From positions 1-61,113 of the forward strand of contig JAKBMK010000025.1 of NCBI GenBank assembly GCA_021831595.1: DNA of 61,113 nucleotides. The letters run 5' to 3'. How positions within the stretch are numbered: the stretch's first letter is position 1; the number at the start of each line of letters is the position of its first letter. Under the pieces are notes generated by a model, which did not search any database, had not been told where the DNA came from, and saw nothing but the letters and a program-made list of their open reading frames with translations. The DNA is from a bacterium (GTDB taxonomy: Bacteria > Patescibacteriota > Minisyncoccia > Phycocordibacterales > UBA9973). The position numbers and the translations under genes are program-made. Positions 9,935-40,057 of the stretch are shown in pieces.

Positions 9935-10054
9935 GAAGGCTATAAATTATTTAAAAAATAATACCAGTCTTTTGCTATTGCCAAGAAAAAATATCGGTAT
10001 ATAATGGACGCATTAAAGACATAAATATCTTGTCGTATAGCAAGAAAAAGACAT

Positions 10055-10861
10055 ATGAATAACCAAAAAGACAACCAAAAGACAGGTTTGAATTCATACG
10101 GACAGTCAAATGTCCTAGACGTAAAAACGTTTGGTAATAAGCATGTTTATGAGTTTGCAAACAAAAAGACAGAGAAGCTCGTAACCGCTCTCTACATGGT
10201 TACAGATTGTATGGATACCGACGATGCACTGAAGGGGAAGTTACGCCAACTAGGAGTAGAATTGCTATCGGACATGTACAAACTTTCAACCCTTTCTCCG
10301 ATGGATAAACACATGCATTTGGGTGCCTCAATGTCGCGAGTAGATGAGATACTTTCGTTCGTAGAAATAGCCTACACAATCGGATTCATCTCAGAGATGA
10401 ATACGATGATATTGAAGAAAGAATTTATGATCCTGATAGGGGAGCTCGAGAGTCATCAGAAGAAGGACAAACACTTCACATTTACACTCGACGAAGAGAT
10501 GTTCTCTCTACCAGTTTTGCCAGAAGAAAATATCTCGAATAATGGAAATAATTTGGTAAAGGACAAAAGGACAAACTTCAACAATATGTCCTATACAAAT
10601 CCTGCATTGAGACATTCCATAAACCAAACACCAACAACCAAAAACCATATTCATTCTGTCTCTGATAAGAAAGAAAGAACTGACAAAATTCTTGCCTTGA
10701 TAAAGGACAAAGAAGTTTCCATAAAGGACATCTCAATTGCTTTCACGGACTGCTCAGAAAAGACAATCCAACGCGAACTGAACTCTCTCGTCGCAAAAGG
10801 ACAAATAAAGAAAACTGGATCCAAACGTTGGTCCCGCTACAAGTTAGTGGCTAGTAATTAG
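10055..10861 (+). CDS. Four-helix-bundle-like N-terminal domain plus C-terminal DeoR-type wHTH
   Basis: KTEKLVTALYMVTD...LKGKLR helical N-terminus and VSIKDIS...CSEKTIQRELNSLVAKGQIKKTGSKRWSRY. Confidence 0.75.
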   Translation: MNNQKDNQKTGLNSYGQSNVLDVKTFGNKHVYEFANKKTEKLVTALYMVTDCMDTDDALKGKLRQLGVELLSDMYKLSTLSPMDKHMHLGASMSRVDEILSFVEIAYTIGFISEMNTMILKKEFMILIGELESHQKKDKHFTFTLDEEMFSLPVLPEENISNNGNNLVKDKRTNFNNMSYTNPALRHSINQTPTTKNHIHSVSDKKERTDKILALIKDKEVSIKDISIAFTDCSEKTIQRELNSLVAKGQIKKTGSKRWSRYKLVASN

Positions 10862-11036
10862 TGATTAGTGACTAGTATTAAGCCCCCGAAAGCTTCGCTT
10901 TCGGGGGTGTGTTTTATTGTATTTTTTTCTAAAACCTAGTCACTCACTGCTAATCACTGCCCATTAATCACTAGCTACTAGCCCCTAATCTTGAGCCCCA
11001 TACTAGTCACTATTCACTAGCTACTAGAAGCTAATC
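10844..11036. repeat. Degenerate heptamer (YTAGTGA / reverse complement) arrays flanking a hairpin
   Basis: TTAGTGG CTAGTAA TTAGTGA TTAGTGA CTAGTAT at 10844-10878, with the reverse-orientation array at 10936-11036. Confidence 0.75.
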
Positions 11037-11155
11037 TTTTGGCCCACTTATCCACACCCTTATAGCATAAGGGCTTGCATATAAATGCCCCCCATTATAT
11101 AATCTTATTGTATATTAGTGTATTGGCATTTTTATGCATTTATGCTAGTATATAG

Positions 11156-11844
11156 TATCCCTGTATGTGTGGCTTAAAACCTCGCAAACGGGATAAGATC
11201 ATTGAAAATAAAATACCATTAATTTCTAATACCAAGAAGGTAATGGCCCTTTCGTTTTCATTGGTCAATCCATTTAGTTTCTTACGATTTTCTTTCCGTT
11301 TTCTTTGCTCATTTTTTCTTCTTTAGACCCGACAATTTTTTGATAGAGAAATTTTGTTTGAGGGATAATGAAAGTAGAAGAGCACATTGTGCATTTCTTT
11401 GATATTTATCCGCCAAACAATTTTTTGATAGAGAATAAATTGTGGCGGAGAGAAGAGAAATAGCATAGAGGACTCGCAAGAATATTTTAAAATTCTAAAT
11501 GTGTATCGGCCCTGTCGACAAGGCAGATATGCTTGTCTATATTTGTAAAGAATTCACTAAAAGAATTTTTTATAAATGAAGCAAGCAGATCATGGTTTAT
11601 GAATTTCGTTTACTATTCTAAATTTTGTTCCTAGTCTATATATAACTTTTTTGATAGAGAGAAGTACGTAGATAAGTTTCAAAGTTTAGAAGTTCAGTAA
11701 AAGATTATTCTTTACTATTAAAAAGTATAGAGTAATCAAATATACACACACATTGGTTTTTTCTGGGGAGTATTATTATTTTATTAGTCACTCCACTAGA
11801 CAAGTCGAAATCAATTTAAACGTGTATAAAAAATAATTAAAAAT
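11156..11844 (+). ncRNA. Candidate long structured 5' leader or ncRNA
   Basis: No long ORF, many stems, and three hairpins with loop TTTTTTGATAGAGA. Confidence 0.55.
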
Positions 11845-13638
11845 ATGTTAAAAAAATATTTAATCGGAACATTAGCTGTAGCAGCTTTACTCATAGGAGT
11901 AACAGCAGCAGCAGCTGATTTCGGTACAACAACTTTGAGAGTTGGAAGTAAGGGTGAAGCTGTGAAAGCAGTTCAAACTCTTGTCGGAGCATCTCCAGTT
12001 GATGGAATCTACGGAAGAATAACAGCTGCAAAGGTAAAGGTATGGCAAGCAGCTAACGGCTTAACAGCTGACGGAGTTTTTGGTCCAGCATCAAAAGCTA
12101 AAGCAGGTTCAGTAACAACAGTTCCTACAACACCTGGTACAACAGTAGCAGGATGTCCAGCAGGCGCATTGTTCAATTCATTGACAGGCGCACCATGTAC
12201 ATCAACTACACCTTCAACAGGTACAGTTACAACAACAGGAGCTGAAGGATCAGTTGCAGTATCTTACGATGGAGCACCAGCAAATGGTCTTACTATCAAT
12301 AAAGGTGAGAACAAAGACGTTTTAGCTATCAAAGTTAAAGCTCAAGGTTCAGACATGAAAGTTACACGCGTATGGGTAGATGTCGGTTCACGCGTATGGC
12401 TATCTGCAGATACAGTTACTCTAAAGGATGGTTCAACAGTTCTTGCAACTCTTCCTTTGACAGCTTCTACAGTTACAGAAGTTACAGCTGGATCAGCATA
12501 CAGACTTGAATTCAATGGATTAAACTTCGTAGTTGCAAAAGACACTACAAAAGTTTTGACAATGAATGTTAACCGCCCAACTCTTACAACAAACGATGAT
12601 GACTGGACAGTTTCAGCTATTTCAGTCAGAGCAGTTGACGGAGCAGGTATCACAGATACTTATCCTCTAGCTGGTCGTTCAGTAGTTATGGGAGACACAA
12701 CAGCTGCAACAGGAACAATGACAGTATCTTTGAATGCAAATTCACCACTTGATATGTCAGTTTCTGGTCTAAGTTCAACATCAGGCGTTACAACAAATGT
12801 TAAGTTGATGGACTTTGATGTTAAAGCTACAGACGGACCATTGAATGTTACAGAAATCGTAGGAACACTTACTTCTTCAAGAGCAACAGACGTTGCTTCT
12901 CTAGAACTTCGTGATGGCACAACAGTACTTGATTCAGTAACAGTAGGTGCTAATACATTATTAGCAGCTAATGCGTTTGATTTCACAGAACTAAGTGTTG
13001 ATGTAGCAAAAGACACCACAAAGACATTGTCTGTATATGCTGTTGTAAATAGCATTACAGCTACAACTGGAGTTACAGCAGGAGACTCAATCAAAGCTAC
13101 TGTAACAAAGGTATATGCTACATCTGGCCCAACATTTACATCTAAGAATCAAACAAGCCTATCAGTCGCAGGAAACACAATGCATTTGTTCAAGTATGCT
13201 CCTACACTCACATTGGGTGCAGTTTCAGCAGTACAAGCTGATGAGTCTACTTCAACAACAGTACAAAAGGGTGCTAACTACTCTATTGCATTTACAGTTG
13301 CCGCTCCATCAGGAAGTGACATCTATGTAGATACAACATTGGTTCTTGCTTCAACAGGTAAAACAGTTGATAAAGGAGCAGCAATTCAGACAACTTCAAC
13401 AGTATCAGGGGTAACTTCACAAGGAAGTACAACTCCTGCATCTGATAAGATTGCCGCAGGTACATCAAGAACATTTACTATAACAGGTTATGTTCCACAT
13501 GGTGGATCAGCTGCTGGATTTACAGCTATGTCTCTAGCAAGTATTCCTTGGAGTACAACTGCTGATGATTCAGATCAGATTGCACAAACATGGGGTCTTT
13601 CAGACTTCAAAACAGCTTCAGTATACGTAACTCAATAA
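11845..13638 (+). CDS. Secreted S-layer-like surface protein with peptidoglycan-binding domain
   Basis: Signal peptide, PG-binding motif LRVGSKGEAVKAVQ...DGIYG...WQAANGLTADGVFGPAS, a Cys loop GCPAGALFNSLTGAPC, a Thr/Val/Ser-rich body and strongly biased codons. Confidence 0.8.
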   Translation: MLKKYLIGTLAVAALLIGVTAAAADFGTTTLRVGSKGEAVKAVQTLVGASPVDGIYGRITAAKVKVWQAANGLTADGVFGPASKAKAGSVTTVPTTPGTTVAGCPAGALFNSLTGAPCTSTTPSTGTVTTTGAEGSVAVSYDGAPANGLTINKGENKDVLAIKVKAQGSDMKVTRVWVDVGSRVWLSADTVTLKDGSTVLATLPLTASTVTEVTAGSAYRLEFNGLNFVVAKDTTKVLTMNVNRPTLTTNDDDWTVSAISVRAVDGAGITDTYPLAGRSVVMGDTTAATGTMTVSLNANSPLDMSVSGLSSTSGVTTNVKLMDFDVKATDGPLNVTEIVGTLTSSRATDVASLELRDGTTVLDSVTVGANTLLAANAFDFTELSVDVAKDTTKTLSVYAVVNSITATTGVTAGDSIKATVTKVYATSGPTFTSKNQTSLSVAGNTMHLFKYAPTLTLGAVSAVQADESTSTTVQKGANYSIAFTVAAPSGSDIYVDTTLVLASTGKTVDKGAAIQTTSTVSGVTSQGSTTPASDKIAAGTSRTFTITGYVPHGGSAAGFTAMSLASIPWSTTADDSDQIAQTWGLSDFKTASVYVTQ

Positions 13639-20454: not shown

Positions 20455-21114
20455 ATGAACGATTTAAAAAAATATTTTGAAAATAACTACAAAAGCCTAA
20501 TTCATAAATGGAATCATTATTTTGAAATATATGATAATCATTTTTCACGTTTTAGAGGTAAAAATATAACTATTCTTGAAATTGGAGTTTCGCATGGTGG
20601 GTCTTTGCAAATGTGGAAAGATTATTTTGGAGAAAAAGCCACTATTATAGGGGTTGATATTAATCCCGATTGCAAAAAACTTGAAGAGGATGGAATTAAA
20701 ATATACATTGGGTCTCAAGAGGATCGAGCATTTTTAAGAGATCTTAAATATAAAATACCAAAAGTTGATATTTTAATTGATGATGGTGGCCATACTATGA
20801 AACAACAAATCACAACTTTTGAAGAACTATATGATCATGTAAAAGATGATGGAGTTTATCTTTGTGAAGATTTACATACTTCTTATTGGGAAGAATATGG
20901 AGGAGGGTACAAAAAAGATGATTCTTTTATTGAATATAGTAAGAATTTTATTGATTATATAAACTCATGGCATTCACATTCTAAAAATGAATTAGATGTA
21001 AATTTTTTTACAGAATCAGCCAATTCTTTACATTATTATGACAGTATTTTAGTTATTGAAAAAAGAAAAAGAACCGAACCTTATCATGAAATGACAGGAA
21101 ATCCAACAATATAA
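20455..21114 (+). CDS. Class I SAM-dependent methyltransferase (glycan modification)
   Basis: ILEIGVSHGGSLQMW, IIGVDI, LIDDGGH and GVYLCED. Confidence 0.88.
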   Translation: MNDLKKYFENNYKSLIHKWNHYFEIYDNHFSRFRGKNITILEIGVSHGGSLQMWKDYFGEKATIIGVDINPDCKKLEEDGIKIYIGSQEDRAFLRDLKYKIPKVDILIDDGGHTMKQQITTFEELYDHVKDDGVYLCEDLHTSYWEEYGGGYKKDDSFIEYSKNFIDYINSWHSHSKNELDVNFFTESANSLHYYDSILVIEKRKRTEPYHEMTGNPTI

Positions 21115-21118
21115 AAAT

Positions 21119-24100
21119 ATGAACTGGGAATATTACAATCCAAAATTTGAATATGAAGAAATTTTTGAAGATTTATCTTGGCCATGGGCAGGGCATAAAT
21201 ACTTTGCGTATGATTTAATTTCTAACATTAAACCAAAAATTATTGTTGAACTTGGAACACATTATGGCACTTCGTTATGGTCATTCTCGCAAGCCGTTAA
21301 AGACCAAAAACTAAATACAGAGATTAATGCCATAGATACATGGAAGGGGGATAAACATGCTGGTTTCTATGGTGAGGAAATTTATGAAACAGTAAAAGAT
21401 ATAAAAAACAAATTTTATTCAGGAGTAAAAATTAATTTAATTAGAAAAACTTTTGATGAAGCCCTATCCGATTTTAATGATGATTCAATAGATATATTAC
21501 ATATAGATGGTTTACATACATATGAAGCTGTAAAACATGATTTTGAGAATTGGCTTCCAAAAGTAAAAAATAATGGAATTATTATTTTTCATGACACGGT
21601 TGTTTCAAGGGAAGATTTTGGAGTATATAAATTATGGAAAGAACTAAAAAAAACATATCAATCAATAGAATTTTTTCACTCATATGGTCTAGGCGTTTTA
21701 TTTAAAGATGAAAACAATTCAATTTTTGGGCTAAAAGAAGAATTAGAACTTCATTATGCATATTTATTGGAAGACATAGAAAATGGTAAAATTGTTAAGT
21801 TATTTAATGATTTAAATGAAAAAAATAAAATTATTGAAAAAAAGAATCAAGAAATTGAATCAAAAGAATCAATAATTCAAAAAAAAGATTTGGAAATTAA
21901 TTCTAAGATTTTTGAAATTGAGTTTATGAAATCGTCTAGATTCTGGAAAATAAAAACTTTTTATGAAAAATTTAAAAACCCGATTTTAAAAGCTATTAAA
22001 TTAATTAAAAAAGCTATAGTTATTTTGAAAAAAGATGGATTAATTATTTTTACAAAAAAAGTAATTAATTTTATTCTTAATTATAAAACAAACCGTAATA
22101 TTTTTTTAATGCCATGTTTAAATGTTAATAATATTTCCAATGAAATTTTTAATAAACAACAGAACGAATTTTCAAAAGAAGAAATAAAATTACAAATAAA
22201 AAATTTTTCTAAAAAACCACTTATCTCAATAATTGTTCCAGTATATAATACTCCGCCAATATGGCTGAGAAAGGCAATTGATTCTTTATGTAATCAGTAT
22301 TACGAAAATTGGGAGATATGTGCAGTTGATGATTTTTCTACCAATGATAAAACACGATTAATTTTAAAAGAATATGGCAAACTTGATCCGAGGGTAAAAT
22401 TTATTTTTTTAGGAGAAAATGGTGGTATTTCTAATGCGTCAAACATAGCCTTGGAAATGGCAAAAGGAGAATATGTTGCGTTGCTTGATCATGATGATGA
22501 ACTGACAAAAGATGCATTATTTTGGGTGGTTAAGGAGATAAATGATAATCCAACTGCTGATTTTCTCTATTCAGATGAGTGTAAAATAGATGATACCGAG
22601 GAAAGAAAATTATTTGATTTTTTCTTTAAGCCAGACTGGTCCCCAGAATTTTTGTTTAATTTTATGTATACAGGTCATTTTACTATTTATAAGAAAAAAT
22701 TAGTTAATGAAGTTGGAAATTTTCGTAGTGAATATGATTTCTCTCAAGATTATGATTTAGCTTTAAGATGTTCAGAAAAAGCTAAGAACATTGTCCACAT
22801 TGAAAGAGTTTTGTATTTATGGAGGGCAGTAGATGGTTCGGCTGCAAATGGTGGGAAAGATTATGCAAGAAAAACAAATATTGCTGCATTACAGGATTTT
22901 GCACATAGAAAAGGTTTACTTGCTCGTGCAACAATATTACCTAATGCCAATTATTTAAATATTATAAATAACATAAACAAAAAAATTTCAATAATAATAC
23001 CATCAGATTCAATTGATAATATTATTCGATCTATAGAAAATATAATTAAAAAAACAAATTACCCATTGTTTGAAGTAATAGTAGTTTGTAACTCTAATAT
23101 TAAAAATAATCTGGAACAAAAATATAAACAAAAAAATATAATTTTTAAACCATATGATAAGCAATTTAATTTTTCTGATAAATGTAATCAGGGAGCCCAA
23201 AAAGCCTTAGGGGATATATTAGTTTTTTACAATGATGATGTTGTACCTATTAATGATGATTGGTTAGTCAAACTTATTGAATATATAGATATAAATGGTA
23301 TTGGTGGAATATCTCCAAAGTTATTATATGAAGATGGCACTGTGCAATATGCTGGAATGACTACTAATAGCCTCCCTTTTTGTGGAACTTTTCTACATCA
23401 AAAAAATGAATCTGAAACGATGGTAAATTTATTAAGGAATGTTTCTATTTTAAGTGGAGCATGTTTGGCAATTAAAAAAAGTATTTTTTTTGAAGTGGGA
23501 GGATTTGATTCAATTAATACACCAGCGGGACATAGTGATTTGGATTTAAGTTTCAAAATAAGAGATGCTGGTTATAGATGTGTTTACACTCCTTATTCCG
23601 TTCTTTCTCACATAGGAAATCACTCTTGGCATATTAAAAAAGATAAGGCCGATATTTATGTATTAAGTAGGTGGGGTAAATATATATCAAATGACCCATA
23701 TTATACAAAAAGTATGCGTGCCACATATGAAGGTTATTTGCCCGAACAATTTGGTATTTTTTCAAAACAATCAGAATTTTTCAAAAAGAAATTTAATGTA
23801 CTAATAGTTATACACGAGCTAACAATTACTGGTGCTCCAATTATTGCATTTGATATAGCAAAAGCCGTATTAGAACTTGGTGGATACCCAGTGATGTATT
23901 CATATTCTGATGGACCGCTTCGTTTTGAATTAGAAAAATTAAATATACCCGTTATTGTTAATAATATTGCGAAACAAGATGAATTTAGTTTTATAAATTT
24001 TGCCAAAAATTTTGATGTTATAATAGCAAATACTGTTGTTACATATCCAGCTGTTCATATGATACAAGATATTGTACCAACAATATGGTATATACACGAA

Positions 24101-36177: not shown

Positions 36178-36480
36178 ATACGAATCACGATGTTAATGAA
36201 CAAAAATCACCAAGTAAAGCGGTTAAAGTAAGACCAATTGGTTTCGCTTTGTCCGCCAAAAGGCGGATTTTTCTTTTAAAGACATCGAGAATGATATTTG
36301 AAAACTGAATGCTGTTCCGACTCACTGTTATCCTTTATTTTAGAGGGTCTTTTGAATCGAGTCGGAAACAGAACACAACAATAATAGATGTATAAGCACA
36401 GAAGGAAGCGGTTCCTGAGAGTGTTTACATCGGATCATGTTTTGCCCTAGAGACAGAGCATGATCGTTTTTAAATTTCCT

Positions 36481-39945
<3,465 letters not shown>

Positions 39946-40057
39946 GGAAATTTGGAAATTATTATTGTTGTGTCAGCATTCAGTTTTCAGATATTATTTG
40001 TATCTGAGAAAGGTCGCCTTCGCGTAAAGCTACGGCGAACCGAAGTTGAAAATTTTG

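Follow-up and report, generated by a model that had tools for sequence, protein, structure and literature searches.

In the ColE1 RNAI/RNAII and R1 CopA/CopT systems, fully complementary loops of 7 to 8 nt make the first contact between two RNAs, and RNAIII of Staphylococcus aureus is an RNA that encodes delta-haemolysin. According to PMC2837412, which also mentions ColE1, RNAIII carries repeated hairpin loops of the same sequence that contact hairpins in the 5' regions of the rot, coa, and spa mRNAs, some of which are surface-protein mRNAs. PMC3666127 describes the S-layer mRNAs transcribed from slpA in Lactobacillus acidophilus and L. crispatus as having long, stabilizing 5' untranslated regions (UTRs) with a hairpin at the very 5' end. 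Here, we analyzed a 61,113-nt stretch of Patescibacteriota DNA (the window), corresponding to C32:1-61113 in a genome (G000) with 33 contigs, a size of 807 kb, and a completeness of 95%, and we describe a gap between two of its genes that encodes a conserved, highly structured plus-strand RNA of ~700 to 735 nt, located directly upstream of a gene for a putative surface protein and presenting copies of one short loop sequence, GAUAGAG.

The locus shares features with each of these systems. Like the slpA leaders, it would comprise a long folded leader before a gene for an abundant cell surface protein, with a hairpin at its 5' end; unlike them, it is ~700 nt in length, several times longer, and combines a conserved multidomain scaffold with an invariant core of 20 nt and with identical loops that vary in number. 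No relation at the sequence level is expected, and the comparison is limited by the downstream protein here being only putatively an S-layer protein. RNAIII may serve as the closest working analogy for the loop-loop docking proposed below, since both cases combine a small RNA that codes for a peptide, repeated loops, and contacts (predicted in our case) with 5'-region hairpins of mRNAs. However, it is the mRNA leader here that bears the repeated loops, and the small RNA bears one complementary loop, in its terminator; the loop sequences are unrelated to those of RNAIII, and no Shine-Dalgarno sequence is involved. The ColE1 and R1 systems have in common with this locus complementary hairpin loops of 7 to 8 nt, but their RNAs come from the two strands of a single locus and match along their full length, whereas here the loci are unlinked and only the loops match. 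Many hairpins with one short loop motif, in numbers that vary between relatives, are also typical of CsrB, RsmY, and RsmZ; in contrast to these RNAs, the motif is GAUAGAG and not GGA, no CsrA gene was found in the genomes examined, the RNA abuts a start codon, and it has no Rfam match.

The gap between the flanking open reading frames (ORFs) spans 983 nt (positions 10862 to 11844) and holds ORFs of only 42 to 56 aa. An initial annotation of the window had described positions 11156 to 11844 as an unusually long ORF-free stretch that forms a large structured RNA, and both descriptions hold. The minimum free energy predicted for this region is -200.9 kcal/mol, compared with -131.1 +/- 4.5 kcal/mol for 20 shuffled sequences (z = -15.7), and the region and its neighbors are conserved. 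A DNA search of 60 relatives gave some match in 31 of the 36 same-genus genomes, in a few of them only to a dispersed repeat, and 27 syntenic same-genus loci were obtained, with gaps of 622 to 1,078 nt and with both flanking genes conserved. The conserved parts are a TTATCCACA box, two promoter-like sites, a 5' hairpin, and segments referred to here as block A, block B, a variable hairpin, and block C. Evidence for an RNA fold comes from block C, for which pairs were counted on a hand-derived three-helix structure in an alignment (A1) of 66 sequences. In this alignment, 80.5% of the cells are paired, compared with 20 to 49% when the partners are slid, and 18 of the 23 pairs change on both sides in a compensatory manner, one of them, for example, being G-C in 29 sequences and A-U in 26; the covariation score was reached by 0 of 500 shuffles. 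RNAalifold predicted zero pairs on the gapped block C alignment. Block A is likewise well preserved, with GATCATTGA[AC]AA present at most 450 nt upstream of block B, with space for the flank, in 76 of the 79 nonidentical leaders of relatives. The 20-nt core of block B, GGCCCTGTCGACAAGGCAGA, is invariant in 26 of the 27 same-genus loci, the remaining locus (L050) ending before the core, although the way in which the loci were retrieved accounts for part of this invariance. We detected no block B in 200 other genomes of the order. Among the 10 same-genus genomes without it, 2 (G031 and G010) have a variant leader (L232 and L233, respectively) in which block A, the GATAGAG hairpins, and GTCGAAG are kept and block B is replaced by ...AAGGCCUUUUUUC..., and the contigs of 2 others (G012 and G001) end there.

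A 19-mer of block B is present in 84 stretches of public genomes, and the public records with the RNA core are labeled as Patescibacteria (Paceibacteria, "Candidatus Nomurabacteria," and Parcubacteria RAAC4_OD1_1). The RNA had not been recognized as a known family in the initial annotation, and the Rfam search suggested there agrees: a covariance-model scan of positions 10000 to 13000 against Rfam 15 at an E value of ≤1 returned only a chance microRNA match (positions 11065 to 11145; 23.7 bits, with a gathering score of 100), and a scan of the whole window at gathering scores returned only 23S rRNA, 5S rRNA, and one tRNA. The leader is thus a large structured RNA family that is uncatalogued in Rfam. 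We found no description of it in the literature on RNAs or S-layers of Patescibacteria, Parcubacteria, or the candidate phyla radiation, a survey that leaves subscription journals and supplements uncovered, and a text look-up in 2026 preprints on intergenic elements found no mention of terms for the leader RNA; new here are the candidate complementary partner loop, described below, and the variant leaders. Two other identities were considered, as Rfam models do not detect these RNAs in G000, and rejected, namely, signal recognition particle (SRP) RNA (RF00169 and RF01854) and 6S RNA (RF00013), neither of which has a match in the region at an E value of ≤1. SRP domain IV is characterized by a GNRA loop and AGCA/CAGG motifs, and block B was rejected as such a domain because it is without them. 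Genome-wide, too, G000 gave no match to RF00169, RF01854, or RF00013 at an E value of ≤1; its RNase P RNA and transfer-messenger RNA genes were found and are located elsewhere.

The initial annotation also named a set of three matching motifs, said to cap different stems. The repeats are all present at the positions claimed: ACAATTTTTTGATAGAGAA occurs at 11332 to 11350 and 11417 to 11435 with 100% identity and has a 79% copy at 11643 to 11661, and exact copies of the 14-mer TTTTTTGATAGAGA lie at 11336, 11421, and 11647. By arithmetic from the base composition, ~0.003 exact copies of the 14-mer would be expected in the window, and the whole 807-kb genome contains one further copy (C8:34199, minus strand). 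A shuffle test allowing up to two mismatches was not significant (5 found and 2.62 expected), so that it is the exact copies that carry the signal. The stems that had been named also exist: CCGCCA...TGGCGG at copy 2, TTCTAAATTTTG...CAAAGTTTAGAA at copy 3 (arms at 11616 to 11638 and 11669 to 11691), GGAGT/ACTCC at 11767 to 11771 and 11790 to 11794, and GCTTG/CAAGC, which flanks the hairpin after 11528. The statement that each loop caps a stem is borne out for copy 2 (local fold of 11405 to 11452, -14.8 kcal/mol) and copy 3 (-22.2 kcal/mol); the local stem of copy 1 is weak (Table 1).

That the matching loops sit on different stems is most apparent from the relatives, in which each gap has one to five GATAGAG copies and the complementary flanks are unrelated between copies (for example, cccgatt/attggg, cccg/cggg, cttac/gtgag, gttgctt/aagcgg, ttgat/atcaa, and ggg/ccc); most relatives have a copy 80 to 300 nt downstream of block B. 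In 80 nonidentical leaders (106 fetched minus duplicates), 136 of 202 GATAGAG copies have at least five contiguous closing pairs; the corresponding numbers are 235 of 1,600 for random positions and 20 of 167 for other GATAGAG sites of G000 (12 to 15%). The 136 closed copies use 75 distinct 5-bp closing helices. Among the internal pairs, G.U outnumbers A.C by 188 to 50, which identifies the plus strand as the folded strand. The loop consists mostly of U or UU followed by GAUAGAG, i.e., (U)UGAUAGAG. Thirteen of the 80 leaders are without GATAGAG, and all of these except one (L061) have hairpin loops with GAUAGGA or GAUAGGU.

In a scan of the genome for strong hairpins with the motif, one case stands out, at C16:~21114-21149, with a stem of 14 bp. 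Read on the strand of the flanking genes, this hairpin forms the intrinsic terminator of a lysine-rich ORF of 23 aa, and its loop, UCUCUAUC, is the exact complement of GAUAGAGA. The partner locus (G000:C16:20861-21150; L144) is flanked by the RNase P RNA gene and secA and consists of a TTATCCACA box, TTGCAT, 17 nt, GATAAT, a leader of ~110 nt, the 23-aa ORF (MAAKKKAKKVVKKVAKKAKKGKK), and the 14-bp terminator, with the mRNA at C16:21024-21150; this promoter layout is common to the partner locus and the surface-protein leader. Among 1,730 G000 hairpins with a stem of at least 8 bp and a loop of 7 to 9 nt, 0.21 CTCTATC loops would be expected and two are seen, the second having an 8-bp stem and lying antisense within a long ORF. 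A genus-level conservation search matched the partner locus in 34 of 41 genomes, and the 23-aa ORF, with AKK-type repeats that vary, is kept across the genus. The terminator loop reads (U)CUCUAUC in 30 of 30 fetched same-genus loci, and its arms occur in 22 versions, including a change from CCCC/GGGG to CCTC/GAGG. The partner loop is predicted to be fully unpaired (probability of 1.0). The two loops are complementary over at least 6 nt and are both found on hairpins (GAUAGAG(A/G) and UCUCUAUC), and they would form a helix of 7 to 9 bp, the 8-bp version having a predicted energy of -9.2 kcal/mol and copy 3 being able to reach 9 nt. The checks made left the co-occurrence of the two loci intact, as the same-genus genomes with the partner and without block B carry the GATAGAG variant leader where the contig permits a view. 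When the complete leader was run against the complete partner RNA in duplexfold, the long-range pairings obtained were meaningless and were rejected.

Four further lineages also have matching complementary loops; the leader loop is the same in one of them and altered in three. In G078, the leader loop is GGAUAGAG and the terminator loop of rplL is UCUCUAUC. The leader loop of G065 is UGAUAGGA, matched by a terminator loop with UUCCUAUCGA, and that of G067 is GAUAGGU, matched by a terminator loop with ACCUAUC. Leaders of the L053 type have a GAUAGGA(U) loop, and the complement is located in the first loop of a small RNA of ~130 nt that has a promoter and a terminator of its own, as AUCCUAUC in G069 and G073 and as UUCCUAUC in G072 and G074; this RNA has a deviating loop in G070 and no match in G071. 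In the lineage of Patescibacteria represented by L191 and L209 to L212, we observed a conserved small RNA of ~130 nt that has its own TAATCCACAG-box promoter and terminator, a first hairpin loop with (A/U)UCCUAUC, and a second loop, GUCGAU, on covarying stems; to judge by its sequence, the GUCGAU loop could pair with GUCGAC of leader block B. Several searches for further partners came back empty: RNase P RNA synteny in distant genomes and the lysine-rich peptide as a protein query gave nothing, querying six other genomes with DNA of the G065 terminator region gave only short matches to ordinary terminators, and the partner pattern had five matches in the 200 other genomes of the order, all of them chance matches within coding DNA and without a hairpin. 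We tentatively suggest that the leaders carry a multivalent docking array and that different lineages may have independently placed the complementary loop on the lysine-rich-peptide mRNA, the rplL terminator, or a dedicated small RNA, a scenario that we find conceivable though somewhat doubtful.

The structured RNA is read here as a leader because there is no terminator up to the start codon of the surface-protein gene: a terminator scan found no terminator-like site between 10908 and the ATG. In addition, conserved promoter-like sites lie upstream, and the structure is conserved to 17 nt before the ATG, where the outer helix of block C ends. As this helix covaries, transcription from upstream should pass that point, and upstream transcripts would then reach at least position 11827. 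The start at 11156 given in the initial annotation is close to the predicted start of the RNA, but the promoter elements lie just upstream, at 11048 to 11151. Promoter-like site P1 was read by eye, and the automatic promoter scan omits it, its first hexamer matching at just three of six positions. Two metatranscriptome runs contain a small share of the stretch. A 548-nt RNA-library contig of a relative, with a depth of 4.45, matches 11128 to 11320 and 11500 to 11702, with 116 nt replacing the 179 nt between; it begins ~20 to 25 nt past the predicted P1 start and extends ~37 nt beyond 11702, ending near 11739. Such contigs carry neither RNA ends nor strand, and because they come from a relative, no inference is drawn from the stretches without RNA-contig cover (11339 to 11480 and from 11765 onwards). 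Shine-Dalgarno sequences are nearly absent from G000 (GGAG in 21 of 472 upstream regions), and TATAAT-like (-10-like) hexamers peak sharply exactly 6 nt before the ATG (63 of 467 long ORFs), a pattern that suggests that leaderless mRNAs are widespread in this genome.

Taken together, the matching loops make it quite possible, if short of probable, that the gap specifies a long structured leader whose loops kiss an RNA acting in trans. Transcription would proceed from one or both of the sigma-70-type promoters (11075 to 11151) behind the TTATCCACA box, and the RNA would continue, with no terminator in its path, up to the start codon of the gene for the peptidoglycan-binding surface protein. As the comparison with relatives shows, a scaffold made up of the 5' hairpin and blocks A, B, and C carries a variable number of hairpins with the loop (U)UGAUAGAG, three in this genome, and these loops would be docking sites for loop-loop ("kissing") pairing with UCUCUAUC, displayed by the terminator hairpin of a separately transcribed small RNA, the mRNA of the 23-aa lysine-rich peptide. 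One leader could bind several partner copies or could itself be held by the partner. Through docking, an abundant small transcript would be coupled to the stability or translation of the mRNA for the surface protein, with stabilization, translational control, and mutual titration as possible outcomes.

Several observations weigh against this proposal. Neither loop varies within the genus, and hence there is no covariation test there. Many of the closing arms are U-runs facing purine-runs that pair in several registers, and in a fixed-register count on 63 aligned copies of the hairpin downstream of block B, 64.4% were paired, compared with 56.9% after shuffling, a slide of +1 doing equally well; the covariation analysis called for in the initial annotation is clear for block C but weak for this hairpin. 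An energy model of the full leader leaves the three motifs just 55 to 59% unpaired, with copies 1 and 2 pairing with each other's flanks. Across lineages, the complementary loops sit in the terminators of unrelated, nonhomologous genes; no partner was found in G066, G068, G075, G076, or G077, and a G076 terminator matched to the G065 one by a short match has a different loop. The partner searches targeted the complement and are biased in this respect, and a relaxed partner pattern was as frequent as its control. Furthermore, transcription is represented by the one low-depth contig of a relative, which stops short of the ORF and stems from a library that may contain DNA, and since many G000 genes look leaderless, a promoter right beside this ATG is possible.

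The initial annotation had proposed either protein-binding or kissing loops, and of these, the latter have gained a concrete candidate partner. That the loops are instead sites for an RNA-binding protein that represses or stabilizes the mRNA, or that the RNA sequesters a protein as CsrB and RsmZ do with CsrA, appears less likely but is an alternative to be taken seriously. The identical loops on unrelated stems, their copy number of 1 to 5 or more between genomes, and the winged-helix gene adjoining the leader would all suit such a protein, and the GAUAGGA loop of other lineages contains GGA, the core of the CsrA site consensus. However, GAUAGGA occurs only in those lineages, the loop of the genus, (U)UGAUAGAG, being without GGA, and PF02599 (CsrA) was above the cutoff in 0 of 13 relatives, including G000, and in 0 of 12 other leader-bearing genomes, with positive controls; a reader of single-stranded GAUAGAG would also leave the exact complement in 30 of 30 terminator loops unexplained. 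We are more doubtful about a separate noncoding RNA, with the surface gene transcribed from its own promoter beside the ATG as a leaderless or near-leaderless mRNA. Such an arrangement would be in keeping with the TATAAT-like peak and the near absence of Shine-Dalgarno motifs mentioned above, with an AATAAT 7 nt before the ATG of the surface gene, and with the RNA-library contig ending near 11739, but contig ends are not RNA ends, there is no terminator-like site from 10908 to the ATG, and the outer helix of block C, which covaries, ends no more than 17 nt from the ATG.

It is harder still to credit a role in cis alone, in which the folded 5' region would shield the mRNA of an abundant surface protein from nucleases and the loops would be local duplications or tertiary contacts. 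The stabilizing 5' UTRs reported for Lactobacillus S-layer mRNAs in PMC3666127 are a precedent, the 5'-terminal hairpin follows right after the predicted start, and a stretch of 19 nt is identical in copies 1 and 2, at a distance of 85 nt, which suggests a recent duplication; yet shielding needs neither a 7-nt loop that is invariant over ~200 copies with unrelated stems nor an invariant 20-nt core, and it leaves the complementary loop elsewhere in the genome unexplained. An array of DNA operators, with GATAGAG as the duplex site of a regulator such as the neighboring winged-helix protein, read in either orientation, is very improbable. Although two loci that share one promoter architecture have the motif in opposite orientations and the winged-helix gene is adjacent, the complementary flanks show a strand-specific excess of G.U over A.C (188 versus 50), the second locus is a plain RNA terminator, and GATAGAG is not obviously enriched genome-wide (170 sites versus ~100 expected, an estimate from composition).

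Table 1. Coordinates of the leader and its neighboring features in the window
Feature	Position	Strand	Description
Upstream gene	10055-10861	+	268 aa; weak C-terminal DeoR-type winged-helix match; stays next to the RNA in relatives
Intrinsic terminator of upstream gene	10882-10908	+	12-bp stem with 8 G-C pairs; T-rich tail
TTATCCACA box	11048-11056	+	DnaA-box-like; upstream of promoter; conserved in relatives; recurs at many G000 promoters
Promoter-like P1	11075-11103	+	TTGCAT, 17 nt, TATAAT; arrangement kept in relatives
Promoter-like P2	11123-11151	+	TTGGCA, 17 nt, TAGTAT; TG before second hexamer; counterpart in relatives
5'-terminal hairpin	11157-11196	+	UAUCCCUG...CGGGAUA; different complementary arms in L036, L041, L045, and L047
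Block A	11197-11266	+	Stem GAUCAUUGAAAA/UUUUCAUUGGUC around hairpin with conserved loop UUCUAAUACCAAGAAG (11224-11239)
GAUAGAG hairpin, copy 1	11326-11362	+	Motif at 11342-11348; weak local stem, -4.8 kcal/mol
GAUAGAG hairpin, copy 2	11409-11449	+	Motif at 11427-11433; stem CCGCC..ACAAUUU/AAAUUGUGGCGG
Block B	11505-11528	+	AUCGGCCCUGUCGACAAGGCAGAU; small hairpin with two 1x1 mismatches and UCGA loop; palindrome UGUCGACA inside; structure by RNAalifold
Long hairpin after block B	11530-11590	+	GCUUGUCU...AAGCAAGC; in relatives, variable arms and loops often GNRA-like
GAUAGAG hairpin, copy 3	11616-11691	+	Motif at 11653-11659, within outer stem UUCUAAAUUUUG/CAAAGUUUAGAA
Block C	11742-11827	+	Three-helix hairpin AUACAC/GUGUAU, AUUGGUUU/AAAUCAAU, CUGGGGAGU/ACUCC.CUAG; invariant GUCGAA
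Spacer and start codon	11828-11847	+	A/U-rich; predicted unpaired (mean probability of being unpaired, 0.79); ATG at 11845; no Shine-Dalgarno sequence
Downstream gene	11845-13638	+	597 aa; signal-peptide-like N terminus; peptidoglycan-binding domain

The protein encoded downstream of the leader contains a peptidoglycan-binding domain (PF01471, PG_binding_1; E value, 2.2e-8), and its N terminus is conserved in 22 of the relatives' loci. It is probably a major envelope protein; as the signal-peptide-like N terminus and PG_binding_1 are its only recognizable features, the S-layer identity is putative. The winged-helix assignment of the upstream protein is based on a Pfam HTH_DeoR match with an E value of 0.002, which is below the cutoff, and Atlas groups the protein with Minisyncoccota hypothetical proteins. 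Its gene was found by tblastn in 26 of the 27 relatives' loci, on the same strand in 25 and on the opposite strand in 1 (L034). Short repeat runs resembling CTAGTCACT and TAGTGATTAG are present in both orientations at 10844 to 11040, flanking the terminator of this gene, and stretches of 30 to 40 nt that resemble these repeats have matches at numerous other sites in genomes of the genus. The perfect DnaA-box sequence TTATCCACA(G) is found at ~15 other intergenic sites of G000, tens of bases upstream of promoter-like sites (for instance, C6:30276, C6:37262, C8:29482, C16:20861, C18:474, C28:31173, and C32:34582), and [TA][TA]ATCCACA has 53 matches in G000 overall; the box may be a general promoter-upstream element or the site of a global regulator. 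Elsewhere in the window, the 23S rRNA match at 36480 to 39947 spans 3,468 nt, compared with 2,925 positions in the model, and the gene thus carries insertions.

To our knowledge, RNA-based regulation is little understood in Patescibacteria, a group with tiny genomes and few regulators. A conserved, folded leader of ~700 nt is exceptional in this setting, because most G000 genes seem to be leaderless and without a Shine-Dalgarno sequence. If the proposed docking is correct, surface-protein synthesis would be tied to a further RNA of the cell, in organisms whose RNA regulation is almost undescribed, and the locus would provide a case of multivalent RNA-RNA recognition in trans in which a terminator loop is under sequence selection. 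Even if the idea of a partner fails, the leader represents a large, uncatalogued family of structured RNA.

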